From the IMG/VR virus record IMGVR_UViG_3300047666_000603, positions 1-64,000 of that record: a stretch of 64,000 bases of DNA; one strand, given 5' to 3'. This DNA is from a virus. Under the pieces are notes generated by a model. It searched no databases. It was not told the DNA's origin and was given only the letters and a program-made list of their open reading frames with translations. Below, piece after piece: positions 12,039 to 35,741 of this stretch (position 1 is the stretch's first letter; each line of letters starts with the position of its first letter). Both the position numbers and the translations under genes were made by a program.

Positions 12039-12272
12039 CCCCCGCCAAAAATAAACAACAATAGTAATGATATAAAGACACCATTAAGCGCAAAAGAAGC
12101 TGAACATCTATTGACTCAATTTCACGTGCAAAAGCCATTAGGTGATTAATTTCCCCCAACACCAATAAAAGTCTTCCTATTAGGATTGTACAAAGGGAGT
12201 ACTTATATTGTGGGGGTTAGTTTGTCCAGTTTTTTAACTAATAAACTGGACTTTAACATAACATAAATAACT

Positions 12273-12494
12273 ATGAAAGAACAAGATACAAAGAACAACG
12301 TACTGGACAAATTACCCATAGGTGAGGCTGTAGAACGGTCTTCTTTTTGGTTTAATCAGTTAGGTGATTTTGAAAAATGGCTTAAATACTGCAAAATGAT
12401 TGGTGTAAACACAAGGGAATCTTACAGAACAAATTTTAATCAATATGAAATACTAGATTTATATGAATACCATAAAGCAATAAATAATCTATAA
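12273..12494 (+). CDS. small ORF of eroded cassette A0
   Basis: KLPIGEAVERS spans a degenerate site (GTT>GCT at 12327); stop overlaps TAAC. Confidence 0.55.
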   Translation: MKEQDTKNNVLDKLPIGEAVERSSFWFNQLGDFEKWLKYCKMIGVNTRESYRTNFNQYEILDLYEYHKAINNL

Positions 12495-12607
12495 CACCAA
12501 CAGAAGTCCTTTCCCTTAACGTGGCATTATTAATAAATGTAAATAATTAAGTGCGCAAGTGAATAAAAATATGCGTACATTAACCGATGATAATAAAAAC
12601 GTGAGCA

Positions 12608-12838
12608 ATGAATAAGCCTGAAAATAGTTTAGATGTAGAGGATAAAATAGTTGATATAGTAACAGACCTTTTAAGGGATGATATAACCAAAACAGAAGCA
12701 ATAGATAAGCTATTGATTTTACACAATGTTGTGGGGCGAAGCGAACAGTTAAAGGCTTTTGCTGAACACCTTGATGAAATGCATGGGGGTGAAGAATTTG
12801 CGGTAAATGAAGTTGAACCTTATTTAAAAAGCCTTTAA
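12608..12838 (+). CDS. cassette A1 ORF
   Basis: starts in hairpin loop; crosses GTT core in frame (HN-V-VGRSEQL). Confidence 0.65.
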   Translation: MNKPENSLDVEDKIVDIVTDLLRDDITKTEAIDKLLILHNVVGRSEQLKAFAEHLDEMHGGEEFAVNEVEPYLKSL

Positions 12839-12846
12839 TTGCCTAC

Positions 12847-12958
12847 AACGCTGAGTGTATGGCACGTTGCCAGCACTAACTTAATTAATAACACAAAGAT
12901 TAAAGATATGGTAAAAGATAATTTAGAAAACGAACAGCAATGTGATATACACATTGTT
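12847..12958 (+). repeat. attC-like hairpin site A2
   Basis: AAC-gctga-GTGTATGGCACGTTGC ... GCAATGTGATATACAC-att-GTT. Confidence 0.8.
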
Positions 12959-13126
12959 AGGCATAGTTGCGAGATGATAACCGAAGAGTATGTTTATAAA
13001 AACGACTTTAGATTTCAACGAACACAGAAACACGGTATTTGGTTTGTGACCTACGAAAACCACTTAATAACATTTGGACAATATAGACATGATTTAGAAG
13101 AATGGATTGATAGCAATTATGCCTAA
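12908..13126 (+). CDS. cassette A2 ORF
   Basis: ATG inside loop of site A2; CDIHI-V-RHS crosses core; stop in TAAC. Confidence 0.65.
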   Translation: MVKDNLENEQQCDIHIVRHSCEMITEEYVYKNDFRFQRTQKHGIWFVTYENHLITFGQYRHDLEEWIDSNYA

Positions 13127-13211
13127 CGGTTTGGCTAAGATTACTAGCCTAAGTAATGAACTAATCAATTAAAAACTAAGCATCATAAGGCTATTAATTT
13201 TAGCCGTTGTT
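13125..13211 (+). repeat. attC-like hairpin site A3
   Basis: AAC-ggttt-GGCTAAGATTACTAGCCT ... AGGCTATTAATTTTAGCC-gtt-GTT. Confidence 0.8.
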
Positions 13212-13234
13212 ATGGTGCGTTAATTAACTTGAAA

Positions 13235-13432
13235 ATGACAAAAGAAGAAAGGAATTTAGACCCACACAGACCTGCAAGATGCGCTATGTGGCTGTATGCT
13301 GACCAATATACTCAGCAGAAAGGTGGTAGTATGGATTTTTGGGATAAGCTATCTGATAGTGATAAAAACACTTGTAGAAGAATGGTAGAACAAATTTCTT
13401 GCACAAGACCTGAATCTGATGATGAGCGGTAA
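13235..13432 (+). CDS. cassette A3 ORF
   Basis: ORF lies wholly between GTT 13209 and AAC 13441. Confidence 0.6.
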   Translation: MTKEERNLDPHRPARCAMWLYADQYTQQKGGSMDFWDKLSDSDKNTCRRMVEQISCTRPESDDER

Positions 13433-13440
13433 TGCACCAT

Positions 13441-13485
13441 AACACCAAGAGAAGTGCCGTTACTTAATGGCATTTCTCGGCTGTT
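13441..13485 (+). repeat. conserved short anchor hairpin (array A end)
   Basis: AACACCAA-GAGAAGTGCCGTTA-ct-TAATGGCATTTCTC-GGCTGTT; near-identical to 35679-35724. Confidence 0.85.
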
Positions 13486-13533
13486 GGGCCGAGTTTTAAT
13501 TCGGAATTTCTTTTATTTTCCATTTCCTCTACG

Positions 13534-13541
13534 TATATTTG
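13534..13541 (+). promoter_or_regulatory. Bacteroidota-type -7 promoter element
   Basis: TATATTTG 17 bp before RNA ligase ATG; also at 25202, 34536 (+) and 22850, 56425, 59315 (-). Confidence 0.6.
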
Positions 13542-13558
13542 GCAAAAATCTAAAACTT

Positions 13559-14452
13559 ATGGAGTTCAAAAAGTATATGCATCTTGAGCGTTTTGACGCA
13601 ACAGAGGTGGAAAACATTGAAATAGGAACGTGCTATGTGTTCCCTAAAATAGACGGCACAAACGCTTCTGTTTGGCTTAATGACGCTGCTATTATCGCGG
13701 CGGGAAGTAGAACAAGAACACTTTCATTAGAAAAAGACAATGCGGGGTTTTATGAGTTTGCTAGTCAATGTTCTGAGATAGCTGATTTTTTAGACTCCCA
13801 CCCAACGCTTAGGCTTTACGGTGAATGGCTAGTTCCGCACAGCCTCAAAACATACAGAGAAAACGCTTGGAGAGATTTCTACGTATTTGATGTAATGGAT
13901 GATAGCGGAAGGTATTTACCTTATAATGAATACAAGTTGCTGTTAGATGAGTTTGATTTAAACTACATCCCGCCAATTAAAATCATCAAAAACGGAACAT
14001 ACGATGATTTTGTATTTCAAATGAACAGCAACAATAACTACCTTATTGAAGACGGCAAGGGAATGGGAGAAGGTGTTGTGCTAAAGAACTACTCATTTGT
14101 AAATAAGTACGGAAGAACGACGTGGGCTAAAATAGTAAGTTCTGAATTTAAAGCAAAGCATCACAAAGAAATGGGTGCGCCCGAAGTGGAATATAAGATG
14201 GTGGAGAGTGATATTGTAGATAAATTCGTCACTCAAGCATTATGCGAAAAAGTAAAGGCTAAAATAGAAATGGAGACAGGTGATTGGAAGTCGCAATACA
14301 TCCCCCGACTATTAAACACTGTTTACTACGATTTAGTTAGGGAGGAAATGTGGGAGATAGTAAAGGAATTCAAGAAGCCTAAGATTGATTTTAAAACCCT
14401 TCAACACTTTACAAATAACAAGACAAAAGAACACTTACCTAAAGTATTTTAA
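13559..14452 (+). CDS. RNA ligase (Rnl2-like nucleotidyltransferase)
   Basis: motif I PKIDGTN, LYGEW, FYVFDV, EGVVLK, WAKIV; adjacent to PNKP. Confidence 0.85.
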   Translation: MEFKKYMHLERFDATEVENIEIGTCYVFPKIDGTNASVWLNDAAIIAAGSRTRTLSLEKDNAGFYEFASQCSEIADFLDSHPTLRLYGEWLVPHSLKTYRENAWRDFYVFDVMDDSGRYLPYNEYKLLLDEFDLNYIPPIKIIKNGTYDDFVFQMNSNNNYLIEDGKGMGEGVVLKNYSFVNKYGRTTWAKIVSSEFKAKHHKEMGAPEVEYKMVESDIVDKFVTQALCEKVKAKIEMETGDWKSQYIPRLLNTVYYDLVREEMWEIVKEFKKPKIDFKTLQHFTNNKTKEHLPKVF

Positions 14453-15348: not shown

Positions 15349-17111
15349 TGATGGTAACAATATTTGATAGTTTGTACGACGACAAGCCTGTGTATTCTGA
15401 GGCTAATGATGTTTTAAGTGCTTTTGCTGTTCGCGGCAAGCATTACAGCACAATAGAGAGAATAAGAAACAGCAAAGAGAAGGGGGAGAGGGATGAGTTG
15501 AAGAAAACATTGCCCATTGTTTGCTTCGGTGGGAGATTTACAGCTAGGAAGAAAGCGGCCTTAGAGAAAGCATCCCAACTCATAATCTTAGACTTCGATG
15601 AGGGGGAAAACCTAAAAACTGTAAGAGAGAGAATGGAGAAATGGAATTGCACATATTCCTGCTTTTCCTCTCCAAGCGGCGGGGATAGATTCAAGGCTCT
15701 CGTGAAGATAGATGAGGTGAAGGATGATGAGGAATTTAAGGAGTATTTTGATTTCTTTGAGCGCAATTACAGCGTAGACATAAGTGGGAAGGACATTTCT
15801 CGTGCTTGTTTTTCTACATACGACCCCGATATATACATAAACGCAAACGCTAAAGTATTTACAAAAGAAATGCTAAAGAAATATGCCCCAAAGCCGCCAA
15901 GGAAACAAACAGACCAAAAGCTAATAGAGCTTGTGAGTAATTGGATACGGCTTGCTCCCCAAGGAACGAGACAACATAATTGCTGTAAAGCTGGATTTTA
16001 TGCGGGAGGTTTAACAAAGATGGGGCAATTAGAACAAACCTCAGCACTCGCGGCATTACATCAAGCAGCCCAAGATAGGGGCGGGGAAATAGATCAGAGC
16101 ATAAGAGCAATAAACGAGAGCTTCGAGCAAGGAAAGTTGCGGCCAATTCTAAACATAAACGAACTGGACAATGTAGTGAGGGGAATGAAGAAGAAGGTGG
16201 TGGATGTAAAGAGCCTGATTGTTTCCCCTGATAAGATGAACCAACAATCAGAAGACCTATACGAAGGAAGGCTTGAAATGGGAAGGGGAATAGGAATAGC
16301 CAACTTCGATAAGTTTGTGAGGTTTAGACAGAACTCATTTACGTTTATAGTAGGGAAGCGTGGAGTGGGGAAAACAGCCACCACCCTCTACCTATTATGT
16401 CTTGACGCGGCAAAGAACAACACCAAGTATTTAGTGTGCGGAATAGAGAACAGCAGCTTCTCGCTAAGAAACCAACTCATTAGTTTCTATTTAAGGGAAA
16501 GAGCCGCCGAAGCATACAAAACAAACAAAATAGGACTGAGAGCAGCGGAGGAATTTATAGACAGCCATTTCGTTTTCATACAATACGATGAGGCATGGGA
16601 GATAGCAGACATATTGAGCATAGCAAAACAGTTAGACGAGGAGCATAACTTCGGAGGGCTGTTCATAGACCCCTACAACGCTGTTACAGTTCCTAACGTA
16701 CCAAATACATTTAAGTACCACGTAGACTCTGCAAATGCTTGTAGAATGTTTAGCGACAGGCATTTTAGTGTATTGCTTACAGCCCACCCCAACAGCGCAG
16801 GGCAAAGAGAGGCGGGAACCCCCTCTGACGTGATGGCTGAACATGGCGGCACATTTCCCAATAAAGCGCACATGACAATGGTAGTGGATAGGAACGCGAA
16901 AGCAGAGGGTGAGGAGAAATACACGACAAGAGTGAGTGTAGATAAAGTGAGAGACAAGGATATATTTGGGGGAGACGAAACCGCAACGGAATTTCCAATA
17001 GTGATGAGGCTAAACCCGATAAACGCAACATTCATAGCCCACCTCCCGATTCACGGAGAATCAAACTATGAGTTTAAAACATACGACTTAATGTCGGAAG
17101 TAAAGAAATAA
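15348..17111 (+). CDS. primase-helicase (VirE-N/BT4734-like primase + SF4-like helicase)
   Basis: LIILDFD, FSSPSGG, KDISRACFSTYDP; Walker A GKRGVGKT, FIDPYN, TAHP. Confidence 0.8.
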   Translation: MMVTIFDSLYDDKPVYSEANDVLSAFAVRGKHYSTIERIRNSKEKGERDELKKTLPIVCFGGRFTARKKAALEKASQLIILDFDEGENLKTVRERMEKWNCTYSCFSSPSGGDRFKALVKIDEVKDDEEFKEYFDFFERNYSVDISGKDISRACFSTYDPDIYINANAKVFTKEMLKKYAPKPPRKQTDQKLIELVSNWIRLAPQGTRQHNCCKAGFYAGGLTKMGQLEQTSALAALHQAAQDRGGEIDQSIRAINESFEQGKLRPILNINELDNVVRGMKKKVVDVKSLIVSPDKMNQQSEDLYEGRLEMGRGIGIANFDKFVRFRQNSFTFIVGKRGVGKTATTLYLLCLDAAKNNTKYLVCGIENSSFSLRNQLISFYLRERAAEAYKTNKIGLRAAEEFIDSHFVFIQYDEAWEIADILSIAKQLDEEHNFGGLFIDPYNAVTVPNVPNTFKYHVDSANACRMFSDRHFSVLLTAHPNSAGQREAGTPSDVMAEHGGTFPNKAHMTMVVDRNAKAEGEEKYTTRVSVDKVRDKDIFGGDETATEFPIVMRLNPINATFIAHLPIHGESNYEFKTYDLMSEVKK

Positions 17112-17397
17112 ATGTTATATTGGCATATGGAAAACAAAGAAATTTCGGTTCTTTTGAAAGAAAGACTACAAGACATTGAAAAAAAATTAAAAGGTAGAGA
17201 TTTTTATTTAATTAAATATGTAAAAGAAGAGGTTATGATGTCCTATTCTGATGGATATAAAGACGCTTCTGATGTTGCTAGAAAGATTTTTTACAAATGA
17301 AAGAATTATTATCAATAGTTATTCCAATATTGCTTGCTGTTTTGTTATTTTGGTTTTGTTTTATTAGAACCCAAGATTGGGACGGGGGAGATGTATT

Positions 17398-18270
17398 ATG
17401 AAAGAAAAATTACTTGTAAGTTTCAGCGGCGGCGAAACATCTGCGTATATGGTGTGGTGGGTAAAGAAACACTGGGCTAATAAATACGATATAAAGTTTG
17501 TATTCGCCAACACTGGTGAGGAAAACGAAGAAACACTTTTGTTTACTAAAAAGTGCCAAGAATATTTTAATATTGATTTAGTTTGGGTGGAGGCTGTATT
17601 TCATAAAGAAAAAGGAAAAGGAACTACTCATAAGGTGGTTCCTTTTGAAGCGGCGGAAAGAAGTAATAAACTATTTATGGATATGGCTGCGGTATATGGG
17701 ATACCAAACCAAATGTTTCCCCACTGCAACAGGGAGCTAAAACTAGCCCCAATTAAGTCTTACTTGAGAAGTGTTGGGTGGAAAAAATATCAAACAGCTA
17801 TAGGGATAAGAAATGATGAAATAGATAGGGTTAACGTAAATAGAGAAAAATATAGGCTTTTATATCCGTTAGTTACAGATCAACCAATGACAAAGCCTAA
17901 AATAAACTTTTGGTGGTCACAACAACCATTCAGGTTAAATTTAAAGGGTTATCAAGGAAACTGCAAAACGTGTTGGAAAAAGGGTGATAATAAATTGTAT
18001 CAAATAGCAAAAGAAAATAGACGGTTTTTTGACTCATTTAAAGAAGTTGAAAAAACTTACACTAATTTTGTTCCAGAAGGAAGAAGTGCTACGGATGAAA
18101 AGATTACATTTTTTAGAAGGGGGAGGTCTACGGAGCAGATATTAAAAGAAGCGGAAAATTTTAACGGTGTAGTAAGAGATGATTCCGCCGAAATAAATTA
18201 TCAAACATCAATACTAGATTACGATGAAAGTGAAAGTTGTGATATTTATGCAATGTGTGGGGATAATTAA
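17398..18270 (+). CDS. PAPS-reductase-like (adenine nucleotide alpha-hydrolase) protein
   Basis: VSFSGGETS, FANTGEE, CNRELK, GIRNDE, GNCKTCWKK. Confidence 0.75.
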   Translation: MKEKLLVSFSGGETSAYMVWWVKKHWANKYDIKFVFANTGEENEETLLFTKKCQEYFNIDLVWVEAVFHKEKGKGTTHKVVPFEAAERSNKLFMDMAAVYGIPNQMFPHCNRELKLAPIKSYLRSVGWKKYQTAIGIRNDEIDRVNVNREKYRLLYPLVTDQPMTKPKINFWWSQQPFRLNLKGYQGNCKTCWKKGDNKLYQIAKENRRFFDSFKEVEKTYTNFVPEGRSATDEKITFFRRGRSTEQILKEAENFNGVVRDDSAEINYQTSILDYDESESCDIYAMCGDN

Positions 18271-18387
18271 AACAGCACTATGAGCGAACAAAGAAGAAGA
18301 CGACGTAAGATGCAAAGGGAATACGAGAAGTATATGCGAGAAATACGTAGGGATGCTTTTAAGAGAGCCGAGGAGCAGAAGGAAGAG

Positions 18388-18455
18388 AAATGATTTTTAA
18401 CACTAAGCTAAGTTCCGTTATTTCAATGGAATTTAGCGGCTGTTAGAAGTTGTTT
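18388..18455 (+). repeat. solo (empty) anchor site of the cassette system
   Basis: AACACTAA-GCTAAGTTCCGTT...AATGGAATTTAGC-GGCTGTT; outer flanks AAATGATTTTTAAC/GTTAGAAGTTGTTT pair with each other (WC or G-T at all 14 positions). Confidence 0.8.
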
Positions 18456-18462
18456 CTTTTTT

Positions 18463-18498
18463 CAATAACAAGGAGCAAAACAGAGAGTGTTACTTTTG
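18463..18498 (+). promoter_or_regulatory. putative late promoter CAATAAC-N21-TACTTTTG
   Basis: one of 7 copies with identical spacing ahead of virion/lysis genes. Confidence 0.7.
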
Positions 18499-18518
18499 GC
18501 TAAACAAAACCGAAAGAA

Positions 18519-20666: not shown

Positions 20667-20669
20667 TAA

Positions 20670-25191: not shown

Positions 25192-25294
25192 TTTTTATTC
25201 GTATATTTGGAGGGTTAATTACAACGGTTTAAATATAGTGTCGTGGCGCACCCAATAAATGCCACTAAACTTAAAAATTGGTAAATATTTGATT

Positions 25295-25510
25295 ATGAAA
25301 AACAGACTTAAATTTAACCTGCGCTATGCACTATATTTTGTGTTGTGTGTAGTGCTTTTATCTAGCTGCGTTGAACGTAGGTGCTATGATGAAGAGCATA
25401 TACTGTTAATAACCGAAAATGCCTTTTTAGAAGGATATAAAGCAGCATTAATGAAGCAGCACCAAGATAGTGCGTGGAATAATGTGAAACAGCAATACAA
25501 GTTTGACTAG
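25295..25510 (+). CDS. cassette B1 ORF, predicted lipoprotein
   Basis: MKNRLKFNLRYALYFVLCVVLLSS-C lipobox. Confidence 0.65.
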   Translation: MKNRLKFNLRYALYFVLCVVLLSSCVERRCYDEEHILLITENAFLEGYKAALMKQHQDSAWNNVKQQYKFD

Positions 25511-25560
25511 TATTACACACAATGGACAAGGCTAAACGAAGTAATTTAAAAAGATTTGAA

Positions 25561-25827
25561 ATGATAAAACTAAAAGCAGAAGTAAACAAAAGTGCAGTAA
25601 TGAGAGAATTACAAGCAAAAGCAATTGAAAGATTTAAAGACTCTTGGCAACCTGAATTACAAGTACAAGCCTACATGAATGGAGCGCATGACCTTTTTAA
25701 ATTATTGCGTTTAGGTGATGTTAGCGTTTCGTTTACGGATAGATTATTTGAAATAGCTTATGATTACGAATCTTCCGTAAGCGAACGAATGGAACAAATA
25801 AAGACCTTATTAGTAAATGAACGCTAA
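25561..25827 (+). CDS. cassette B2 ORF
   Basis: about 60% encoded within the hairpin site; LGD-V-SVS crosses core; stop in TAAC. Confidence 0.6.
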   Translation: MIKLKAEVNKSAVMRELQAKAIERFKDSWQPELQVQAYMNGAHDLFKLLRLGDVSVSFTDRLFEIAYDYESSVSERMEQIKTLLVNER

Positions 25828-25880
25828 CACCAAGCTATAAAGCGTTTCAATGCTTTTATAGCGTCTGTTGTGATTTAATA

Positions 25881-28277: not shown

Positions 28278-30433
28278 TGCCATATACAAAAGCACAAATA
28301 GAATGCAGAGAAGCGCATAAGAAATTTGAGCGTAGATATGAAGTGAAGAAACACGTTCCTGATGCTATATGGGATTTCCCATACATACGTCCTGAGCCAC
28401 CTTCCGCTCCCGCCAAAATACACAACTACGGAAAGGCAAAAGGTGAGCGGAAGTTTCCTTATTACACAGATGAGTTTGTAGATAAAATGGAAGCCCTTGC
28501 GAGAGAGGACGTTCTTTCAGAAGAGTATATAAGCTTTGTGGAAGGGGAATGGAGTAGACGTGTAAAGGGATTCTTTTTTTACAACGGGAACTCTCTTGAA
28601 TACGTAACAGGACACCACTACTGCACACTGCAATACTGGAAAATACCTGTAACCAAGAAAGTGAGAGGTGTGAGCCGTAAAGGAAGGTACAAGCCTGACT
28701 TTATAGATATGCAGCGGGATATTTGGTACGCTATAGACTATGCCCGAAAGTGCGATGTGTCTACAGGTGTGTGCTTAGTCGGCTTCCGTCGATCAGGAAA
28801 AACAGCTACAGCATTAGCGGAAGGCTATTGGGACTCCACAGAGAACCCTGAAAGCGTATTCGCCATACAAAGTAAACCGGGTAACGATTCCAAGAAGCAA
28901 TTTAAGAAGCTAGTGGATAGTTGGAAGCTAGTTCCCATTTGGTTCAAGCCGAAAGATACAGAGGAAACAACCCAAACCACACGCCTAGTATTTGGAGAAA
29001 AGAAACAGAAAGGACGTAGCATTGAAGACCGTGTATACCAAGAAGTACTTAACTCCGTAATATACGCAGAGAACTCAAAGGAAGAAGCACTCGATGGTGA
29101 GTATGTCAGCTTTGTGTTTCAGGATGAGCTTGGGAAAAGCCCACGAACACTGAACGTAGAAGAAAGGTGGAATATTACAAAGGAAGCCTTATTTGATGGT
29201 AGTGATGTAATTGGGAAAGCCTTCTTAACATCAACCGTAGAAGATCAGAATAAATATGGTAGCGCACACTTCAAGAGAATATTTGACGACTCCGACCCAA
29301 ACAAGCTACTACCAAACGGCCTAACAAACTCAACACTATTCAGACTATTCCTTCCTGCTTATTACGGGTTTCGCGGGGAAGAGAAAAACAAGAAAATAAG
29401 CTTCGTAGACGAATGGGGATACACAAACGTAAAAGAATCTAAGGAATACCACCAAAAGATGTACGACTCTAAGAAAGGAGACTCACTGCTTTCTTACAGA
29501 CGTAAATACCCCATGTCTATAAATGACTGTTGGATTACGAGCGATGCTAAGAACAACTTTAGCAGCCAACGCTTAATGGAGCAGAAGATATGGAATGACG
29601 GAGTGAACTCTACAGAATGGGTGAGAGGTAATTTCATGTGGAAGCAAGGAAGGAAATGGACGGAAGTTGATTTTTATCCCGATGAACAACAAGGAAGGTG
29701 GTTAGTAGCTTGGCAACCCGACGAACACGACCGCAACCAATGGGATTTATACAACGGAACACAGAAACGACCTAAGCGTTCTTTCTGCTTTACGGGAATT
29801 GACCCATTTAGTCACGGGAAAGTGGTGGATGATGAGCAAGGCTCTAACGGCGCAGCAGTGACAATACTAAAAAGCTACGGAGGAACAGACCTTAAAGAAT
29901 CTGTCGTATGCGTTTACAATTACAGACAAGCAGACCCTAACGCGCAGATAGAGGACATGATAATGCAATGCGTGTATTATTCTTCTCCCGCGCTAATTGA
30001 AAGCAACGTAGGATTTGCAATAAACGGATTCCAAGACAAAGGCTACTATGGATTCTGTGAGATGAACCCATTAGAGACCCGTCAGGAGATTATCAGGAAA
30101 GGAAAGAAGGGATATGCCACAACGTCAAAAGAAAGCGTAGAAAACCTTATAAGCAACGTAGCAAGCTATATATTGGATAGGGTGGGGAAGCGAGAAGATG
30201 GTGAGTGCGGATATTTCCCACCGCAGCTCGTAGACCAATGCCTAAACTTCAACCCTGAAAAACGCGGCCCCTATGACCTTGTAATGGCATTAGGGATAGC
30301 TGTAATACTTCTCCGCAACGAAAAACAAAGCACCAACATAGGTTGGGATTTTAGCGATTGGGTTCCTAGAGCAAGTGTTTCCACCTACGAAAGAGTGAAA
30401 ACAGGGCTAAAAAAGAGTCAAATCATCGGCTAG
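28277..30433 (+). CDS. terL: terminase large subunit
   Basis: RRSGKT Walker A, FQDELGK Walker B, TSTV, GIDP nuclease, IESN, YDLVMA. Confidence 0.9.
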   Translation: MPYTKAQIECREAHKKFERRYEVKKHVPDAIWDFPYIRPEPPSAPAKIHNYGKAKGERKFPYYTDEFVDKMEALAREDVLSEEYISFVEGEWSRRVKGFFFYNGNSLEYVTGHHYCTLQYWKIPVTKKVRGVSRKGRYKPDFIDMQRDIWYAIDYARKCDVSTGVCLVGFRRSGKTATALAEGYWDSTENPESVFAIQSKPGNDSKKQFKKLVDSWKLVPIWFKPKDTEETTQTTRLVFGEKKQKGRSIEDRVYQEVLNSVIYAENSKEEALDGEYVSFVFQDELGKSPRTLNVEERWNITKEALFDGSDVIGKAFLTSTVEDQNKYGSAHFKRIFDDSDPNKLLPNGLTNSTLFRLFLPAYYGFRGEEKNKKISFVDEWGYTNVKESKEYHQKMYDSKKGDSLLSYRRKYPMSINDCWITSDAKNNFSSQRLMEQKIWNDGVNSTEWVRGNFMWKQGRKWTEVDFYPDEQQGRWLVAWQPDEHDRNQWDLYNGTQKRPKRSFCFTGIDPFSHGKVVDDEQGSNGAAVTILKSYGGTDLKESVVCVYNYRQADPNAQIEDMIMQCVYYSSPALIESNVGFAINGFQDKGYYGFCEMNPLETRQEIIRKGKKGYATTSKESVENLISNVASYILDRVGKREDGECGYFPPQLVDQCLNFNPEKRGPYDLVMALGIAVILLRNEKQSTNIGWDFSDWVPRASVSTYERVKTGLKKSQIIG

Positions 30434-30677
30434 GCATTAGCGAATAAGCATCCGCAATTGAATAGCCAAGCCCATTAAACAGCTTGGACATCGTAATGAA
30501 CGTGGTGGTTATCTTCTTGTTCTCAATATTACAGATGTGATAGGCTGTCACACCCGACAACACCTCTAACTCTCTCATACTAATCCCCTCAGCGTTTCTA
30601 AGCGTTCTCAAAAGAGTGGCTAAATCAGCCGCATCCACCTTAAACTCTACTGTTTCTTTGTAGTCTTTCTTACTCAT
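30423..30677 (-). CDS. XRE-family HTH regulator
   Basis: LRTLRNAEGISMRELEVLSGVTAYHICNIEN. Confidence 0.8.
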   Translation of the reverse strand: MSKKDYKETVEFKVDAADLATLLRTLRNAEGISMRELEVLSGVTAYHICNIENKKITTTFITMSKLFNGLGYSIADAYSLMPSR

Positions 30678-30697
30678 AGATATAATTTATCAAATTT

Positions 30698-30733
30698 CAA
30701 TAACAAATAGAGAACAAATATACACTTATTTTG
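30698..30733 (+). promoter_or_regulatory. putative late promoter CAATAAC-N21-TTATTTTG
   Basis: upstream of scaffold/MCP. Confidence 0.65.
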
Positions 30734-30754
30734 CATTAAACCAAATTATTGTAT

Positions 30755-31894
30755 ATGAGCGAAGTGCAAGAACAAGTAAGTAATCCATTTGCAGGGATGG
30801 TTCACGGCACAAGAACAGCCCCATCAGCACCATTAGCGGAAGCACCGTCAACAGTAGTGGATGATGAAGAAGTGGTAGAGGACACACCCGACGTGGTGGT
30901 GGACATATCCGAAGAGGCTACAGAAGAAGTGAAGGCGGAAGAGCCTAAAGAAGAAGTGGTGGCGGATGACGTAGTGACGTTAGACTTCGGGCAAAAAGTA
31001 GAACCACAAGAAGTAACAACAGAAACAATAGACGCATACAAAGAGCGACTAAGCACACTAGAGGCGGAATTAGCTAAGGCAAAAGAAACACCCAAGCTAG
31101 ACCCCCGCATAGAGAAATTAAACGACATCATCCGCAACGGAGGCGACATAAACCAATCCGTATGGGAGATGCAATCAAAAGACTACTCTGACATTTCATT
31201 GCAAGAAGTGGAGAACACTTTAAGCATAGTGAAAGACAAGTTGAAGTATTTAGATGGGGATGACGCTGACATGGTGAACATCTACCTAGACGACAAATAC
31301 CCAACACTAAGAGGTAAGAAAGACGCTGACGACTTTGACACAGATGAAGAGTTTGGCGCACAAAAGAAACGAGAAGAAACATTACTGCGGAAAGAGGCAA
31401 AAGAATTTGTTCCAAAGCTGAAAGACTTTCAGGAAGGGATGAGATTGCCAAACGCACCGCAACATAAACAACAAGAGGAATACGAACAAGCAGTGAGGGC
31501 TTATCGGACAGAAGCTATAACGAAAGTTAGTGAAATTAACTCGTTTGACATACAGCTTACAGATGACCTTACAGTGAGGATTCCAATTACAGGGGATGCC
31601 GCTAAATATGCTGACTCCATTGCCACTGAGCCTGAGAATCAAGCACAGTATTTTAATAGGTATAGGAATGAGGATGGAAGCGTGAATTTCCAAAAGCTTA
31701 AAGTAGAGACCTACCGCAGCCAAAACCAAGAGCAGATTGATAAAGCCTTGTTCGATCAGGGCCGAAGTTACGGGAAGAAGGAAGCAATACAGGAACTACA
31801 AGGTGACAACGGAGGCATGACAAGGAAAGCAGCCCCCACCACCAAAAAAACTAACAACCCGTTTTCGGGTATGAAACATTCAAAAAGAAACTAA
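30755..31894 (+). CDS. capsid scaffolding-like protein
   Basis: highly acidic, coiled, directly before MCP; NPFAGM/NPFSGM at both ends. Confidence 0.6.
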   Translation: MSEVQEQVSNPFAGMVHGTRTAPSAPLAEAPSTVVDDEEVVEDTPDVVVDISEEATEEVKAEEPKEEVVADDVVTLDFGQKVEPQEVTTETIDAYKERLSTLEAELAKAKETPKLDPRIEKLNDIIRNGGDINQSVWEMQSKDYSDISLQEVENTLSIVKDKLKYLDGDDADMVNIYLDDKYPTLRGKKDADDFDTDEEFGAQKKREETLLRKEAKEFVPKLKDFQEGMRLPNAPQHKQQEEYEQAVRAYRTEAITKVSEINSFDIQLTDDLTVRIPITGDAAKYADSIATEPENQAQYFNRYRNEDGSVNFQKLKVETYRSQNQEQIDKALFDQGRSYGKKEAIQELQGDNGGMTRKAAPTTKKTNNPFSGMKHSKRN

Positions 31895-31897
31895 CAG

Positions 31898-33349
31898 ATG
31901 GGATATACACCAGTAGGTATAGGGGGAAACTCCCCACAAGGGGTTGGTCTAGCAAGGACTGACTTTAACTTTTTAGGAGCGCAGACTCTAAACGGATTTT
32001 CCGTACTGCATCCTGACGTAGACCCAACGTTGACAAAACGTTATGGGCATCAAGACGACATGATCTCAATGTTTGACAAATTGGGTCTTGCACGTCGAGT
32101 AACGAATAGTACAATCTTCCGTCACTACGAAGAAGAGCGACTACGACCACCTGTGGTTATGGACGCTAGTAGCGTTGGAGGCGCTGGAGCAACAGTGCAG
32201 ATTCCAATTTTAGCGGCTGACCAGTTTAGTATTCCGCAATCAGCTCCGTACATCGGATCAGGAACAACTAATGCTGTAGCACCTCGACTTGGTGATGTAG
32301 GGTTTTTCTCTAACAACGTAGAGGCTGTAGTAACTGCTGTAGCTGCTGATGGCACTACGTTTGATGCAACACCAACACAAACAGGCGAAGTAATTCCAGA
32401 AATCACATCTGGCGATGAGTTTGTCATCACTTCCGCTGTATCTAATGAAGCGGGTACATTCGCAGATAGAGGTTCATTCTCAAGTCGTGTAATCTACTAC
32501 CAAAACAACACACAAATCTTCACTGAGCGTCACGAAATTTCTGGCTCTGCATTAGGTGAAGAAACGTGGATTGACTTTGATGGTAAGTACGGACAAGGAA
32601 AGTACTGGTACTACTACGATATGGACAGAACGTTGAGACGACACAAAAGCTCGTTTGCTAACGGTTGCATCTTCGGAAAGGACATCACTAACGTTACGTT
32701 GGCGGGAATCGCTGGATTTGAGCAAGCTAAGAAAACAAAAGGTTTGATCCCAACAATTCAAGCTTCGGGTATTAATGAAGCCTTTACAACAGGAGCCTTG
32801 ACGCTAGCTGATGTTGAGAATGTTCTTGATGACTTGTCAGAGCAAAGTGCTGCTAACGAGTATATGCTTCTTTGTTCTCAAGGGTTCCGTAAGGACATTA
32901 ACAAACTCGCAAGAGAAGGTGATGGGCTTACTTTCAATCAGGATTCTAGGTCTTCTATAATCTTCGCAGACTTCAATGGCGGTGTTCAAGCTGTAGACTT
33001 TGATATAGATACTGTGAAACACCTAGGATACACATTGAACATTAAAACTCAACGTGCATTCAGTGATCCAACCCAACAAGGAGCAATCACAGCATACAAT
33101 AGTTTTGCTGTCGGAATGCCAATGGGAGAGGTGAACATCTACGAAGAACTAGGTGGAAGCTATGTAAAAACACCTGCAATGCAAGTGGTATACAAAGGAT
33201 CAGGCCCAGAAGGAGGAGATCGTTCAATGGACGAATACGTACAAACTCCAAGAGAGACAGGTAAAGACAACTTAGTACACGTAATGGTGACAGAGGGTGG
33301 TGTTGAAACAAACGCCATTAACCACTGCTTCACAATGCAAGGTTCCTAA
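31898..33349 (+). CDS. major capsid protein
   Basis: 483 aa; RYGHQD, NNTQIFTERHEISGS, TKGLIPTI; followed by strong terminator. Confidence 0.8.
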   Translation: MGYTPVGIGGNSPQGVGLARTDFNFLGAQTLNGFSVLHPDVDPTLTKRYGHQDDMISMFDKLGLARRVTNSTIFRHYEEERLRPPVVMDASSVGGAGATVQIPILAADQFSIPQSAPYIGSGTTNAVAPRLGDVGFFSNNVEAVVTAVAADGTTFDATPTQTGEVIPEITSGDEFVITSAVSNEAGTFADRGSFSSRVIYYQNNTQIFTERHEISGSALGEETWIDFDGKYGQGKYWYYYDMDRTLRRHKSSFANGCIFGKDITNVTLAGIAGFEQAKKTKGLIPTIQASGINEAFTTGALTLADVENVLDDLSEQSAANEYMLLCSQGFRKDINKLAREGDGLTFNQDSRSSIIFADFNGGVQAVDFDIDTVKHLGYTLNIKTQRAFSDPTQQGAITAYNSFAVGMPMGEVNIYEELGGSYVKTPAMQVVYKGSGPEGGDRSMDEYVQTPRETGKDNLVHVMVTEGGVETNAINHCFTMQGS

Positions 33350-33366
33350 GTAGTAATAAATGCAAT

Positions 33367-33397
33367 GGCGCGGGGAAAGACCTCGCGCCTTTTTTTT
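33367..33397 (+). terminator. intrinsic terminator
   Basis: GGCGCGGGG-aaaga-CCTCGCGCC + T8. Confidence 0.85.
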
Positions 33398-33414
33398 ACA
33401 TATACAATCAACAA

Positions 33415-34473
33415 ATGGCAAACTTAGTCTATAGATTAGGACAATCAGGCAGACAGAAGAGAAGCAACCCATCAGATTTAGGTTATTACGCAACAGGTTC
33501 AAGAGACGGAGGAAATCAAGACCTCGCACCACCTATGCCCTATTCGAGAAGGTTTAAAGCAATTCACACTGTAAGAGTAGAGAAAGACGGGAAAATAATT
33601 CCCCGCAAAGTGGCCTACAGCCCCGACGAAGAAAGTATTTTTATGGATGATTGGGTGGATAAAAACTCAAAAGTTGTAAAGATTAAGTTCAAGAAGGGGA
33701 TGCTCATGGTGGATGAGGATAATGAACCACAACTTATTGAACTGTTAAGTTTATTGGACGGGAATGAATCAAAACCAAATAGGGACACTAAAACCCCTGT
33801 TTTATTCCATCAGATTAACAAATCAAAGAAAGCAGAGGAAGTTTTGTTAAACGAAGAGCGTGTAGCAAAAGAACTAGCCGTATATTGGGACTTACCATAC
33901 ACAAGAAAGCAAGCAATTGCAAATTGGGTGGGGATAAGAACAGCAAACCAAGACCCGAATATGTGGCAGCACAGCCTATTCCTATGGGCGAAACACAACG
34001 TCAAGAAGTTTAAAGAAGTTTATCACAACCCCGACCTAGAGTACATGGATTTCATTTCACGAGCAGAGAACATCGGCTTATTGAAGTTTAACACAAATAC
34101 ATGGAAATACGGAGAAGTGAAGATGCTAGTAGTGAGTAGGAATGATATGCGCTACGAGAAGCTAGTGGAAAGGCTCTTAAACGAACCCTCGCTGTACAAG
34201 TCTATTGCTGACGACGTACTTCGGGCAGAAGGTAAAAGCAACCTCATAGTAGCAGGGAAGGAGAAATTTGACTTTGATGCAATGACAGCCGAAGACCTTT
34301 TGGACAAAGCTAAGAAGCATGACTTAGTGAAATACAAAGGAGGAACAGGATTCTACATTGTGGACACAGGTAAAGCTGTGGGTAAATCAACCAAGGAGGA
34401 CGCTATTAAGTCAATAGAGACAGACCCTTATTTGAGACAACAAATAGAGGAACAGTTCAAAAAGCTCATCTAA
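33415..34473 (+). CDS. conserved-type phage protein following MCP
   Basis: 352-aa ORF; SIFMDDW..IKFKKGMLMV. Confidence 0.55.
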   Translation: MANLVYRLGQSGRQKRSNPSDLGYYATGSRDGGNQDLAPPMPYSRRFKAIHTVRVEKDGKIIPRKVAYSPDEESIFMDDWVDKNSKVVKIKFKKGMLMVDEDNEPQLIELLSLLDGNESKPNRDTKTPVLFHQINKSKKAEEVLLNEERVAKELAVYWDLPYTRKQAIANWVGIRTANQDPNMWQHSLFLWAKHNVKKFKEVYHNPDLEYMDFISRAENIGLLKFNTNTWKYGEVKMLVVSRNDMRYEKLVERLLNEPSLYKSIADDVLRAEGKSNLIVAGKEKFDFDAMTAEDLLDKAKKHDLVKYKGGTGFYIVDTGKAVGKSTKEDAIKSIETDPYLRQQIEEQFKKLI

Positions 34474-34500
34474 TAAAAAGGAGGTGATGTTCTAAAATAA

Positions 34501-34532
34501 AAAGCCCTGCATTTGTTTGCGGGGCTTTTTTT
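34501..34532 (+). terminator. intrinsic terminator (possibly bidirectional)
   Basis: AAAGCCCTGC-atttgttt-GCGGGGCTTT + T run. Confidence 0.8.
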
Positions 34533-34602
34533 GTTTATATTTGCTCATAACGTTAAATGTAAAAAGCATTTTAATGATTTTTAAATAATGTTGTAAGTAG
34601 TT

Positions 34603-34714
34603 GCTGCGGTATGCAAGAGTAAATGACTTCTAATTGTCGCCCTGCAAAGGTTGGTCAAAGCAGCGTCCGCAAAACGTGCCGCAAGGTTCGAGGGTTCGAA
34701 TCCCTCTCGTAGCA
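34603..34714 (+). ncRNA. atypical tRNA-like RNA (GCA loop, 34-nt D-loop insert), cassette C1 cargo
   Basis: acceptor GCTGCGG/TCGTAGC, T-arm GAGGG-TTCGAAT-CCCTC, D-arm TGCAAG..TGGTCAAAGCA, arm GCGT-CCGCAAA-ACGT, variable arm GCC-GCAA-GGT. Confidence 0.7.
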
Positions 34715-34973
34715 GCTATTACTTACAACGTTTAGTATAAAAATAGTAAGGGGTGGAGGTTGAAATCTCCCGACTCATAGGTAGCTATAATCTTGTCCAT
34801 ATCCTATGCCAAGCCCGTAGGTTATAGACCCCTTATTTTATTTACACATTGTTGTATGTCTTTTTTAATTGCATACAACTACAAAGCTATGTGGCGTGGC
34901 TACAACAACGCTGAAATAAACAAACAAGTCGCCCAGCCATGCCATATAGGTAATGTTGTGGTGCGTTTTTATT

Positions 34974-35195
34974 ATGAACTTGAAATATGCAATACAAGTA
35001 AAAAAAACAGGGAAGTGGTTAAACTTAGATTTTCATGACGGGTCTGAAATAATAACTGTAAATGACTTTACGAAGGCTTATCATTTCGATGACTCAGAAG
35101 CGGCTGAAAAATTCCTTTCTTATCATAGGCTTGATAAAGGGAATCACGAGATGTTTAAGCTCGAAGTATTTGCTAGGCCGATTGAATGGTCTTAA
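34974..35195 (+). CDS. cassette C3 ORF
   Basis: 73-aa ORF between GTT 34955 and mutated core TAC 35201. Confidence 0.6.
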   Translation: MNLKYAIQVKKTGKWLNLDFHDGSEIITVNDFTKAYHFDDSEAAEKFLSYHRLDKGNHEMFKLEVFARPIEWS

Positions 35196-35303
35196 TGCCC
35201 TACGGCTATGATAAGAACTGGCCGAACAAAAACACTAGATTCAAGCCGTAACGCTGCCGCGGCTTGTTTTTATCAATTGTTGGCAGCAGTTAAATTTTTT
35301 AAG

Positions 35304-35669
35304 ATGATTCGAATTATTAAAGACAAAACAGAACTGAGAAAAGGAAACTTAATTTTTGTTGATAGCATAGTATTCCCACCAAATTTTATTACCGCTAAAC
35401 CGCAAATTCTAGGTGATGGATGGGAAGAGGATATAAATAAAGAGTGGGAAAATTGCGCCTTTCTAAATGCTAAAGAGCAATACATGAAAGATTTATTCGG
35501 CAATGAAATGGAGAAAAACGAGGTGAAAGTTGAGCAATTGGAAAAAGAAGATTTCGACACATTTCCAAAGTGGAAGATGAGTTACAAAAAGGAAACTAAA
35601 GAGGCTTCTTTTATACACCAAGTTCAAAACAATTATGAGGATTGGACTGGTGAAAAGCTCATCCCTTAA
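35304..35669 (+). CDS. cassette C4 ORF (ELR.GN...HQ.QN..TGE family)
   Basis: ELRKGNLI...FIHQVQNNYEDWTGEKL; resembles 61200-61607. Confidence 0.65.
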   Translation: MIRIIKDKTELRKGNLIFVDSIVFPPNFITAKPQILGDGWEEDINKEWENCAFLNAKEQYMKDLFGNEMEKNEVKVEQLEKEDFDTFPKWKMSYKKETKEASFIHQVQNNYEDWTGEKLIP

Positions 35670-35741
35670 TTGCATCCCAACACCAAGAGAAGTGCCGTTT
35701 TTTCAATGGCATTTCTCGACTGTTGTGAGCATATTCTTTAC

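Follow-up and report, generated by a model that had tools for sequence, protein, structure and literature searches.

We conclude that islands A, B and C of the phage genome studied here are probably integron-type cassette arrays without an integrase, CALIN-like in organization and built on a Flavobacteriales variant of the attC site. Shown here are the hairpin sites, their homology to bacterial sites, differences in gene content whose breakpoints fall at the cores, and an inverted gene polarity. An integron-like reading had been put forward in a preliminary description made from sequence alone, and it is supported by the homology, the variation at cores, and the missing phage recombinase. The window analysed, 64 kb long, is part of a complete phage genome of 73 kb with terminal repeats. 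Its source is likely a cold-water phage of Flavobacteria-type hosts, in which numerous small accessory genes are kept as exchangeable cassettes.

Two classes of hairpin are involved. Class I, with the consensus YAAC-ACYAAG-stem-CGRCT-GTTR, has four strong copies, all on the + strand (13436-13492, 18394-18451, 25821-25876, and 35674-35731), each lying directly 5' of a core phage gene (RNA ligase, the 18519 gene, portal, and virion protein). Among these copies the stems vary via compensatory changes, and AACACYAAG, the loop, and CGRCTGTT are invariant. A covariance model made from the four copies (R1) scores them at 64.7-81.3 bits in a scan of the window, where the next-best match reaches only 16.3 bits, and no further copy was found when the remaining genome (64-73 kb) was scanned. 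Class II hairpins, which are internal and lie between small genes, follow AAC-5/6 nt-stem-loop-stem-3 nt-GTT. A second model (R2), trained on nine phage sites only (none from the window, four from Polaribacter phage P12002L), matches the window at 12846-12959 (34.8 bits), 13124-13212 (28.4 bits), and 34548-34593 (29.6 bits). Together, these models confirm the AAC...GTT hairpin family claimed for loci A, B, and C, and the claim of an empty site at 18388-18455 also held. Support for a claimed relic, D, is weak, with R1 matches of merely 10.6-14.1 bits (E>0.3), and the suggested tie to the motif Flavo-1 failed, as no such link was found in the Rfam check.

The following features make up island A, which precedes the RNA ligase gene, and the solo site.

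12153..12222, + strand: degenerate class I-like hairpin opening the island (CCCCCAAC ACCAAT ... TGTGGGGG), read by eye; R1 gives no detection at E<=10.
12273..12494, + strand: small ORF of 73 aa with no Pfam family and no preserved arms; the 5' half of a hairpin, truncated (AACACCAAC...), comes next, at 12493.
12608..12851, + strand: small ORF of 76 aa, lacking a Pfam family, with right arm TTAATTGCCTACAAC at its end, for which no matching left arm was found.
12846..12959, + strand: class II (attC-like) hairpin, R2 34.8 bits, with ATG 12908 in a long loop; the frame from this ATG runs via the 3' arm and GTT core into the following unit, and homologous hairpins are present in loci L107 and L156.
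12956..13127, + strand: unit A3, GTTAGGCATAGTTG ... CAATTATGCCTAAC.
13124..13212, + strand: class II hairpin separating A3 from A4, R2 28.4 bits, fold energy -21.6 kcal/mol.
13209..13443, + strand: unit A4, GTTATGGTGCGTTA ... TAATGCACCATAAC, with a 65-aa ORF inside whose stop codon lies within the right arm.
13436..13492, + strand: class I anchor hairpin closing the island, 5' of the RNA ligase gene, R1 74.0 bits.
18394..18451, + strand: solo class I hairpin (empty site), R1 77.8 bits, missing from the relative L155; its flanks pair mutually with G-T allowed (by-eye reading).

Island B lies upstream of the portal gene.

25213..25344, + strand: left outer arm of the island (..TTAATTACAAC) and a long-loop hairpin, fold energy -27.2 kcal/mol, with ATG 25297 of a lipoprotein-like ORF within the loop.
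25342..25522, + strand: unit B1, GTTGTGTGTAGTGCT ... AGTATTACACACAAT, arms pairing at 12/14; its trailing core is decayed (AAT at 25522 instead of AAC).
25522..25827, + strand: ORF B2, 101 aa, no Pfam family, stop codon within ..GCTAAC.
25821..25876, + strand: class I anchor hairpin 5' of the portal gene, an R1 covariance match, conserved in position in the relatives L155 and L156.

Island C lies upstream of the virion protein gene; a canonical terminator with a T-run, separate from the hairpins, occurs at 34494-34535.

34540..34599, + strand: left outer arm of the island (TTTGCTCATAAC) and first hairpin, R2 29.6 and R1 15.7 bits.
34590..34731, + strand: unit C1, arms of ~20 nt, with a tRNA-like RNA as cargo (22.6 bits against Rfam tRNA, under the gathering score of 29; ARAGORN finds no tRNA in it).
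34727..34853, + strand: long hairpin site, 127 nt, fold energy -28.9 kcal/mol, stem seen as a repeat.
34851..34879, + strand: empty 29-bp unit, GTTGTATGTC..TTGCATACAAC; its ends flank a 227-aa ORF in L107, and its right arm recurs 3' of a methyltransferase gene in P12002L.
34877..34957, + strand: class II hairpin, fold energy -23.0 kcal/mol.
34951..35280, + strand: unit C3, with an 80-aa ORF (34953-35195) and a decayed right arm, then a hairpin.
35278..35681, + strand: unit C4, with ORF 35304-35669 inside, GTTGGCAGCAGTTAA ... TTAATTGCATCCCAAC; the pair is imperfect, requiring an indel.
35674..35731, + strand: class I anchor hairpin closing the island, 5' of the virion protein gene, R1 81.3 bits.

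Well-preserved units open with GTT-N7-GTT and close with AAT-N7'-AAC, and the two ends are mutually complementary. The pairs 12956-12970/13113-13127 and 13208-13222/13430-13444 each span 15 nt at 93% complementarity, 25343-25356/25509-25522 match at 12/14, and the 30-nt arms 34578-34607/34712-34741 are 77% complementary. With 20 dinucleotide shuffles of the window as the chance control, we counted 34 inverted repeats of 14 nt (at most one mismatch, within 1.5 kb), versus 29 +/- 10 in the shuffles, so that these repeats are not in general excess. Those initiated by GTT number 4, versus a shuffle mean of 0.45 and a maximum of 2. In loci that bear the motif or are related, GTT-N7-RTT...AAY-N7'-AAC is found 13.9 times per 100 kb, versus 1.06 in the other loci compared. 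In arrays, the partner of a right arm is the left arm of its own unit and not the arm on the other side of the hairpin, and arm mismatches are one-sided (left G facing right T in 18/32 mismatches, left T facing right G never). The claim of complementary unit ends thus held for well-preserved units, given the 15-nt pairs and the enrichment over shuffles, and partly failed for several window units with decayed or missing arms; around the ORFs 12273-12494, 12608-12838, and 34953-35195, a by-eye reading of the sequence found no preserved arm pairs. The claimed match of the outer flanks of island C held as well: they co-vary, with TGCTCATAAC/GTTGTGAGCA in the window and TGCTAAC/GTTAGCA in L155.

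The content of these loci differs among phages. In a relative with 74% portal identity, the docking places are the same but the genes are different; L155 carries three units plus two anchors in syntenic positions, and the same unit grammar occurs with other cargo in L156, L107, and L090, as well as in the prophage L161, where array GC is 0.33 versus 0.41-0.43 in the flanks. The methyltransferase genes of P12002L are flanked by hairpins of the same class and by the same unit ends. The strict class I pattern has matches in 56 contigs of IMG/VR and 9 of GTDB, with ~0.05 chance matches estimated. Co-occurring variant contigs break exactly at cores: a replacement of island B in variant X4 stops at |AAC 25826, divergence begins directly after GTT| 34592 in X3 and in a 21.7-kb X1 contig, and X4 departs after AAC| 34879, running straight into a class I hairpin. 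A direct repeat of 55 nt in L155 likewise stops precisely at AAC. The AAC| and GTT| breakpoints join hairpins of different classes without mutual homology. This comparison used contigs, not raw reads, and assembly by its nature places contig ends at repeats. The expectation that relatives and variants differ at the cores therefore held, with one exception, the PAPS-reductase block 17122-18273, which is an indel between relatives away from any hairpin core. Also, the left end of unit C3 shares 24 identical nt with L156 666-689, where the ORF is different, and this identity (window 34951 versus L156 666) stops at the start codon, not the core; it is therefore compatible with homologous exchange too.

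Homology to bacterial integron-type sites was found. The phage-only R2 model matches a Flavobacteriales chromosomal cassette array (L224, genome G189) at 60.0 and 47.9 bits. The cassettes of this array have 9-10 bp of end complementarity, of the same kind as the phage units, and next to the array is a tyrosine recombinase that fits the integron integrase family best (TIGR02249, 236.5 bits, below the cut-off of 265; NF040815, 227.3 bits, above the cut-off of 220). Among 151 genomes sampled from Flavobacteriales (the order of G001), R2 matches 38, 43 have an IntI-like match at E<=1e-26, and 17 have both; in 6 of these 17 (G154, G114, G022, G085, G075, and G035), one contig carries both, with a hairpin no more than ~12 kb from the recombinase. 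Long bacterial arrays show GTT+7/7+AAC unit ends. However, none of 301 Flavobacteriales genomes reached the curated integron-integrase cut-off, and the recombinases found lack model positions ~180-240 and are therefore IntI-like rather than classical IntI. Of five genomes in which hairpins are clustered, four lack an IntI-like gene at E<=1e-24.

The phage itself seems to have no such enzyme. The earlier remark that no integrase is in view held, as a profile search of the whole 73-kb genome (PF00589) gave no tyrosine recombinase match; no recombinase is among 25 of the 31 Pfam families found for 119 phage ORFs, and PF00589 is likewise unmatched in five other large motif-bearing phage contigs. 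Of the two sources suggested for the recombinase, elsewhere in the phage or in the host, the phage is thus unsupported, and the host or another mechanism remains.

In 52 of 56 phage loci the genes lie on the better-folding strand of the hairpin, whereas in all 11 bacterial loci they lie on the opposite strand. Fold energies, antisense versus sense, are -28.4 versus -15.0 and -30.4 versus -19.5 kcal/mol in bacteria; in phages, sense versus antisense values are -20.6 versus -13.5 and -19.0 versus -12.6. Since the better fold is antisense to the bacterial genes, it is not in bacterial mRNA, and the asymmetry therefore cannot be an adaptation of mRNA; it is a property of the DNA. Some phage cassette genes begin inside the hairpin loop. 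CALINs, including one in P12002L, were already published in 2023 (PMC9892861). What is new here is the placement of genes on the folding strand, opposite to bacterial arrays, with some starts within the loop.

We propose that the class I hairpin would be a resident docking site just 5' of core phage genes, and that a cassette would consist of a class II hairpin plus a body opening with GTT-N7 and closing with N7'-AAC. When the cassette is circularized, both ends would pair and lengthen the hairpin stem, with the AAC/GTT core as the exchange point. An incoming cassette would go in 5' of the resident hairpin, so class I would always be last in an array and the outer flanks would stay complementary. 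As phage genes are on the better-folding strand, the hairpin is within the mRNA; in several cassettes it provides a start codon and an ~18-aa leader, and the right arm holds the stop codon. Two elements of this model are inferred: a host-encoded IntI/Xer-like tyrosine recombinase that uses folded single strands as its substrate, and the existence of cassettes in circular form. The sequential insertion of circular cassettes that had been proposed is not shown with respect to circles, acting enzyme, or insertion order; no cassette circles or excision joints were seen among the contigs aligned (contigs only, no raw reads).

An unlikely alternative is that the hairpins resemble PeSLs, that is, conserved expression signals between whose cores homologous recombination occurs, maybe with mini-circles as in T4-type phages and without a site-specific recombinase. 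A crossover in the conserved centre of a variable palindrome would yield the identical signature of own-end pairing, and the phage has no recombinase yet encodes a PD-(D/E)XK nuclease, Phage_SSB, and a repair exonuclease. Shared modules may stop at the start codon, a 55-nt direct repeat terminating exactly at AAC in L155 resembles Campbell-type homologous insertion, promoter-like TAnnTTTG boxes follow class I hairpins, and mini-circles are published for PeSLs (PMC2839356, PMC4122927). Against this, the same site family makes classical-looking bacterial arrays beside IntI-like recombinases, the trinucleotide cores are invariant with exact breakpoints linking non-homologous hairpin classes, and a P12002L site was recombined by IntI1 at G|TT (PMC9892861).

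Two other explanations appear very improbable. If the hairpins were solely mRNA terminators, processing signals, or translation signals, unit-end pairing would be long-range mRNA structure and the genes would not move via the sites. The well-folded form on the sense strand in phage, conserved G-U-compatible pairs, start codons in loops, stop codons in arms, and anchors between transcription units favor this; the antisense fold in 11/11 bacterial loci, the different genes at hairpin loci in relatives and variants, and the separate terminator argue against it, and simple RNA pairing does not predict the one-sided mismatches. Alternatively, the palindromes themselves may be mobile, as in REP elements or MITEs, via an unknown transposase (RAYT-type, or IS110-type as in L155), with genes as bystanders. 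In support, the solo hairpin is missing in L155, unrelated contigs share a 41-nt hairpin at 97.6% identity, an IS110-family transposase adjoins a hairpin in L155, and hairpins are scattered through many Flavobacteriales genomes. However, simple hairpin insertion predicts the reverse of the observed pairing within units, and no transposase is among 25 of the 31 Pfam families found for the phage. REP/BIME elements with RAYT share short imperfect palindromes, dispersed and clustered intergenically, with conserved ends and variable stems; they differ in that no RAYT-like gene is among those 25 families, and REP elements are not known to bracket genes with self-complementary ends.

The integron-type reading has close precedents. 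Qi et al. (2023) identified a CALIN with two methyltransferase genes in P12002L, one site of which IntI1 was shown to recombine (PMC9892861); like the islands here, this array consists of small genes bounded by AAC...GTT hairpins, has no integrase, and belongs to a lytic phage whose host is one of the Flavobacteriaceae. We equate the published sites with our hairpins on gene context only. That account has two predicted sites in one array per phage, and gene polarity noted as "divergent directions" only; its sections bearing on the array contain no class I anchor, multiple docking loci, inverted polarity, loop-start ORFs, spread over Bacteroidota phage contigs, or link to Flavobacteriales chromosomal arrays. 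Classical integrons share imperfect AAC/GTT hairpins between cassettes, complementary cassette ends, one better-folding strand, co-oriented arrays, empty and solo sites, and bacterial arrays beside an integron-integrase-like tyrosine recombinase. In contrast, the phage lacks IntI, the bacterial partner enzyme falls below the curated cut-off and lacks a mid-model part, end complementarity is 10-14 bp versus about 7, phage genes are on the folding strand with ORFs crossing the core in frame, and arrays occupy several loci with a distinct anchor hairpin each, versus one attI. PeSLs of T4-type phages are similar in being conserved promoter/stem-loop modules that separate small, dispensable genes within hyperplastic regions of lytic phages, with modular shuffling and reported mini-circles; according to the abstracts (PMC2839356, PMC4122927), they differ in relying on homologous recombination of near-identical motifs, without AAC/GTT cores, unit-specific end complementarity, or relatives beside host-chromosome recombinases.

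TAnnTTTG is a promoter consensus, and promoter-like boxes of this form were read by eye from the sequence 3' of the class I hairpins.

Phages that co-occur with this one join the same modules in different combinations, with the seams at the AAC and GTT cores of a family of hairpins; at the level of contigs, this is shown. The hairpins form two classes, each with a covariance model: R1, built from the four class I (anchor) hairpins, and R2, built from class II (attC-like, inter-unit) hairpins. The class I copies all lie on the plus strand and score 64.7 to 81.3 bits with R1 (the next match has 16.3 bits); their flanks, AACACYAAG and CGRCTGTT, and their loop are invariant, and their stems vary by compensating substitutions. 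Class II sites, among them those listed, lie inside the cassette arrays (islands) and are recovered by R2, which was trained on nine sites, all from phage DNA outside the window.

Hairpins and units in the window (islands: A, 12.15-13.49 kb; B, 25.22-25.88 kb; C, 34.54-35.73 kb)
13436, plus strand: class I hairpin
18394, plus strand: class I hairpin
25821, plus strand: class I hairpin
35674, plus strand: class I hairpin
12846-12959: class II site
13124-13212: class II site
34548-34593: class II site
34877-34957: class II site
12956-13127: unit with own-end pairing, well preserved
13209-13443: unit with own-end pairing, well preserved
25342-25522: unit with weaker own-end pairing
34590-34731: unit with weaker own-end pairing
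35278-35681: unit with weaker own-end pairing

The outer AAC and GTT boxes pair within an imperfect palindrome, which meets a criterion for attC sites, and the bases next to the cores are Y before AAC and R after GTT. In classical attC sites, the recombined strand is marked by extrahelical bases and an unpaired central spacer. The internal loop of the present sites is asymmetric (5 nt versus 3 to 4 nt on the phage sense strand, 4 versus 5 to 6 on the bacterial coding strand). Bulged bases are not clearly evident; set arm positions instead show fixed G-T mismatches. Arm mismatches are one-sided, with a left G facing a right T in 18/32 mismatches and the reverse never seen, for which we offer no explanation. 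Each of the three islands holds two to five sites within 1.4 kb. The criterion for a cluster of attC sites lacking an integrase (at least two close attC sites and no integrase nearby) is thus met only if the sites count as attC, and we count them so because R2 shows them to be homologous to bacterial arrays, not on the basis of the standard attC model. The preliminary description had suggested a comparison with Rfam, including the Flavo-1 motif; across the whole window, neither Flavo-1 nor any other family matched at gathering scores. At E ≤ 10, the hairpin cores of both classes in 12000-13600 and 34400-35850 are free of matches, apart from one to SorY (13452-13514; 14.4 bits against a gathering score of 111). 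A relic array claimed at 58.7-59.3 kb on the minus strand was not supported by the R1 search, and R1 found no class I copies in the last 9 kb of the genome.

Well-preserved units, that is, the cassette bodies between hairpins, start with GTT-N7-GTTN and finish with N'AAT-N7'-AAC, the two ends of the same unit being complementary. The preliminary claim that a unit's ends pair with each other and not with those of its neighbor held for the well-preserved units; some units are decayed. Own-end pairing also occurs in two relatives of the phage (L155 and L156), in the Polaribacter phage P12002L, and in bacterial arrays. Long-range inverted repeats overall are not enriched (34 versus 29 ± 10 in shuffles); those initiated by GTT are (4 versus 0.45), and in motif-bearing and related loci the unit-end pattern reaches 13 times its density in the remaining loci compared. 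These pattern-based tests superseded one anchored on ORFs, which only 2/127 ORFs passed and which was replaced because longest-ORF calls begin 5' of the left arms. Beyond the window, the minus-strand early region at 66.2-67.8 kb adds at least five units of the same grammar, and the full 73-kb genome holds more units than had first been noticed.

The source record is a 73,238-bp IMG/VR genome with direct terminal repeats, and its portal protein is ~25% identical to those of Cellulophaga, Flavobacterium, Maribacter, and Tenacibaculum phages. Megablast found no near-identical relatives among 50,697 phage records, blastn with hairpin-sized queries gave no significant match, and a single-protein query found no portal relatives in IMG/VR. 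An alignment-based metagenome scan for the portal yielded five loci, with useful flanks only in L155 and L156. L155 (74% portal identity) is syntenic with the window from 15.3 to 36.8 kb and keeps a class I-like hairpin directly before the portal gene, as does L156, and before the homologue of gene 35796. The small genes between these conserved genes are wholly different in L155, again in units with self-complementary ends, and the outer flanks of island C covary (TGCTCATAAC/GTTGTGAGCA in the window, TGCTAAC/GTTAGCA in L155). The same arm can accompany other cargo: the 24-nt left end at 34951 in the window is identical to that at 666 in L156, and the empty 29-bp unit at 34851 shares its ends with the unit of a 227-aa ORF in another motif-bearing locus (L107), its right arm also lying 3' of a methyltransferase gene in P12002L.

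Population variants were sought in Logan contigs from four metagenome runs (X1 to X4) aligned to window positions 16000-35999. These data are contigs only, which can be expected to end at repeats and to miss rare forms, and parts of the window without X2-X4 cover were not interpreted. The X4 variant is mostly 95 to 99% identical to the window. Island B is replaced in it by ~1 kb of other sequence (record coordinates): the match ends at 25209 and restarts at 25826, where the class I AAC begins. X4 also passes straight from the AAC at 34879 to a class I-type hairpin; the two cassettes of 34880-35678 are thus absent there in that form. The hairpin at 34554-34592 is common to X3 and a 21.7-kb X1 contig, and both diverge immediately after the GTT at 34592. 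The prediction of breakpoints at AAC/GTT cores thus held at 25826, 34592, and 34879. It did not hold for the block at 17122-18273 (a 62-aa ORF and the PAPS reductase gene), which is missing in X4 and L155 and does not end at hairpin cores.

Among IMG/VR contigs, 56 carry a strict class I pattern, as do 9 from GTDB. The GTDB contigs are assigned to Flavobacteriales, Flavobacterium, Sediminicola, Fluviicola, Sunxiuqinia, and Bacteroidia, except for two of the nine from a Planctomycetaceae MAG and one from an unnamed bacterium. One class I contig is a prophage, whose two-cassette array has a GC content of 0.33 versus 0.41 to 0.43 in the flanks. None of 20 loci of RNA-ligase relatives matched R1; the hairpins are therefore not linked to the RNA ligase gene. 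An initial loose DNA pattern was rejected as mostly chance, with the real motif in 12/80 loci.

Clusters of attC sites without an integrase have already been published for phages, including a Flavobacteriaceae phage (PMC9892861). Qi et al. reported 17 such phage clusters in 2023, one of them, with two methyltransferase genes, in the virulent phage P12002L, where attC-calling pipelines found two sites and one site was recombined by IntI1 at G|TT (PMC9892861). In the P12002L genome we find the methyltransferase genes surrounded by class II hairpins and by unit ends like those described here, on the genes' own strand. The two published sites may be these hairpins; their identity is not confirmed. 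Among 301 genomes from the order of a Sediminicola MAG (Flavobacteriales), none reached the curated integron-integrase cutoff, and three gave strong partial matches. One of these three lies at a Flavobacteriales chromosomal array (L224), where the best family of a 381-aa tyrosine recombinase is integron integrase (236.5 bits versus a cutoff of 265), and the protein passes the XerA/integron-integrase model NF040815. Six co-oriented small ORFs follow it, separated by AAC...GTT hairpins, each cassette having 9 to 10 bp of end complementarity. R2, trained on phage sites only, scores 60.0 and 47.9 bits at two of these sites. Of 151 genomes sampled from the order, 38 have R2 matches, 43 an IntI-like gene (E ≤ 1e-26), and 17 both; in 6 of the 17, a hairpin and the gene lie no more than ~12 kb apart on one contig. 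Other genomes of the order have long arrays without an IntI-like gene. Class I is rare in bacterial loci (two weak matches). A tblastn search with the L224 recombinase against the phage loci of this study matched only L147, a chance-pattern locus. A complete integron requires an integrase gene (IntI, a tyrosine recombinase with an IntI-specific extra domain) with an attI site and a Pc promoter beside it; the phage genome is without this gene and so offers no definable attI.

The phage system also differs from classical integrons in its polarity. In classical attC cassettes, the bottom strand folds better and is the recombination substrate, the gene is encoded on the other strand, and the hairpin follows the ORF on its 3' side; the phage cassettes do not fit this placement of the gene. 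Genes are opposite the model strand in 11/11 bacterial loci, as in classical integrons, and on the same strand in 52/56 phage loci and at every window site. Folding is asymmetric in both settings (-28.4 versus -15.0 kcal/mol at L224; -20.6 versus -13.5 at window position 13441). The better-folding strand is thus a property of the site family, which is shown for folding only; the substrate strand is not established. As this strand is noncoding in bacteria, the asymmetry is not an adaptation of mRNA, and a reading of the hairpins as RNA elements alone is weakened. The G-T pairs were likewise rejected as proof of RNA function, since bacterial arrays have the same asymmetry on the noncoding strand. 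From its strand placement, we infer that the phage hairpin is cotranscribed with the gene.

In class II hairpins with long loops, an ATG opens a hydrophilic leader of ~18 aa whose frame continues across the 3' arm and GTT core into the unit; the stop codons of units are placed in the right arm.

Loop-encoded ATG and leader
12908, window: class II loop
25297, window: class II loop
L107, L156, L188, L198, L208, L112, L186: class II loops at other loci

ORFs pass in frame across the minimal junction AAC-CGAT-GTT in three loci (L107, L090, and L216). Such frames through the site, like the inverted polarity, are not among the features of classical integrons. Leaders in L188, L198, L208, and L112 are alike (M-x-K-E-Q-N-L-E ... 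L/C-x-I-x-x, then V at the GTT core). A leader may be a functional signal peptide or merely the translation of a conserved site; either is possible.

We propose that circular units (hairpin plus body) would insert at AA|C of a resident hairpin, which would leave the anchor beside the core gene and the outer flanks of the array complementary. The class I hairpins are the putative docking sites, in the role of attI. The preliminary description had placed the recombinase elsewhere in the phage or in the host. The phage part failed: PF00589 gives no matches in the 73-kb genome, no recombinase is among 25 of the 31 Pfam families found in its 119 ORFs, and a tyrosine recombinase is also absent from five other large motif-bearing contigs. 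Because of these absences of a tyrosine recombinase, a host IntI/Xer-like enzyme is the leading candidate, and the host part remains an inference.

The main rival is homologous exchange inside conserved hairpin cores, as modeled on the PeSLs of T4-type phages (PMC2839356, PMC4122927), and it would give the same signature. A PeSL combines a strong early promoter with a terminator stem-loop. By eye, and judged by the general promoter-box consensus, promoter-like boxes lie 3' of class I hairpins. PeSL copies are near-identical, whereas class I copies share flanks and differ in their stems. Class I hairpins also have no following T-run, and a canonical terminator is found elsewhere in the phage.

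A bolder reading, which in its joint form we would neither back nor dismiss, is that Bacteroidota phages have an integron system of their own. Here the folded recombination site would be turned round and lie within the mRNA, doubling as an expression module whose loop supplies the start codon and a short leader peptide and whose arm supplies the stop codon. Cassettes would dock at several anchor hairpins ahead of core genes. The crossover core could fall inside a reading frame, so that protein halves would be shuffled besides whole genes. Since the sites are common to Flavobacteriales chromosomal arrays, the pools of accessory genes in phage and host would be coupled by an IntI/Xer-like recombinase of the host.

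Our searches of the open-access literature returned no account of a Flavobacteria-type integron variant or of the phage hairpins described here, nor of the site variant common to Flavobacteriales arrays, multilocus anchor hairpins, inverted polarity, loop-encoded starts, or in-frame junctions. Lytic phages swap small accessory genes, many of which prove to be antidefense genes, and this swapping is mostly ascribed to loose homologous or illegitimate recombination. The swap points here are a defined family of folded-DNA sites common to many Bacteroidota phages, a prophage, and Flavobacteriales chromosomes. This offers a testable mechanism by which marine and polar phages may acquire methyltransferases, Lar-like proteins, and ORFans, and extends integron-type biology to the Bacteroidota, a phylum with very few integrons according to standard tools (PMC9024848). 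Should the sites recombine, they would be a natural system for in-frame module exchange. In practice, R1 and R2 together detect such arrays in metagenomic phage contigs.

The cargo of the window cassettes consists mostly of ORFans (eight without any Pfam family); one unit outside the window is weakly Lar-like, and the cargo of P12002L is methyltransferases. Antidefense roles are suggested, as an inference from this cargo. The islands neighbor genes for RNA ligase, polynucleotide kinase, primase/helicase, PAPS reductase, a repair exonuclease, the portal, and virion proteins, and metagenomes containing this DNA carry ice and brine labels. Pfam families among the 119 ORFs of the whole genome include the Tad6 Thoeris inhibitor, NAPRTase/NAMPT (NAD salvage), PD-(D/E)XK nuclease, two HNH endonucleases, a Lar-like protein, and YopX, none assigned to individual ORFs. 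A canonical intrinsic terminator (GC stem plus T-run) lies at 34494-34535, 3' of the gene at 33415-34473; the phage thus possesses terminators of the usual kind, separate from the cassette hairpins. Unit C1 carries as cargo a tRNA-like RNA (34603-34714) with a T-arm-like GGTTCGAATCC, enclosed by a 20-nt closing stem; Rfam tRNA scores 22.6 bits, under the gathering score of 29, and ARAGORN calls no tRNA gene.

In L155, an IS110-family transposase (DEDD_Tnp_IS110 plus Transposase_20; 19942-20997) directly follows a hairpin GTT in a variable island of this lytic-type relative, and the inserted block is flanked by a 55-nt direct repeat (19146-19200 and 21196-21258) ending exactly at AAC. A Flavobacteriales MAG contig (L160, 5362-7332) has three tandem copies, ~830 bp apart, of a block of two units and a class I hairpin; these may reflect amplification or a (long-read) assembly effect and are not used as evidence. 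Near 21956, an X4 contig starts with the final 30 nt of a class I hairpin, followed by a GCGC-GTTTTAAT-GCGC hairpin, and joins at 21956, possibly an extra docking site in the variant or a graph artifact at a repeat. A second small hairpin with the loop GTTTTAAT often lies 3', and sometimes 5', of class I hairpins.

Second small hairpin beside class I, loop GTTTTAAT
13486-13510, window
L107, L090, L112, L084, L039, L043: other loci

Short class II sites have the same octamer as their loop. Empty units resemble this hairpin, and loaded units resemble such a hairpin split into GTTN...N'AAT.
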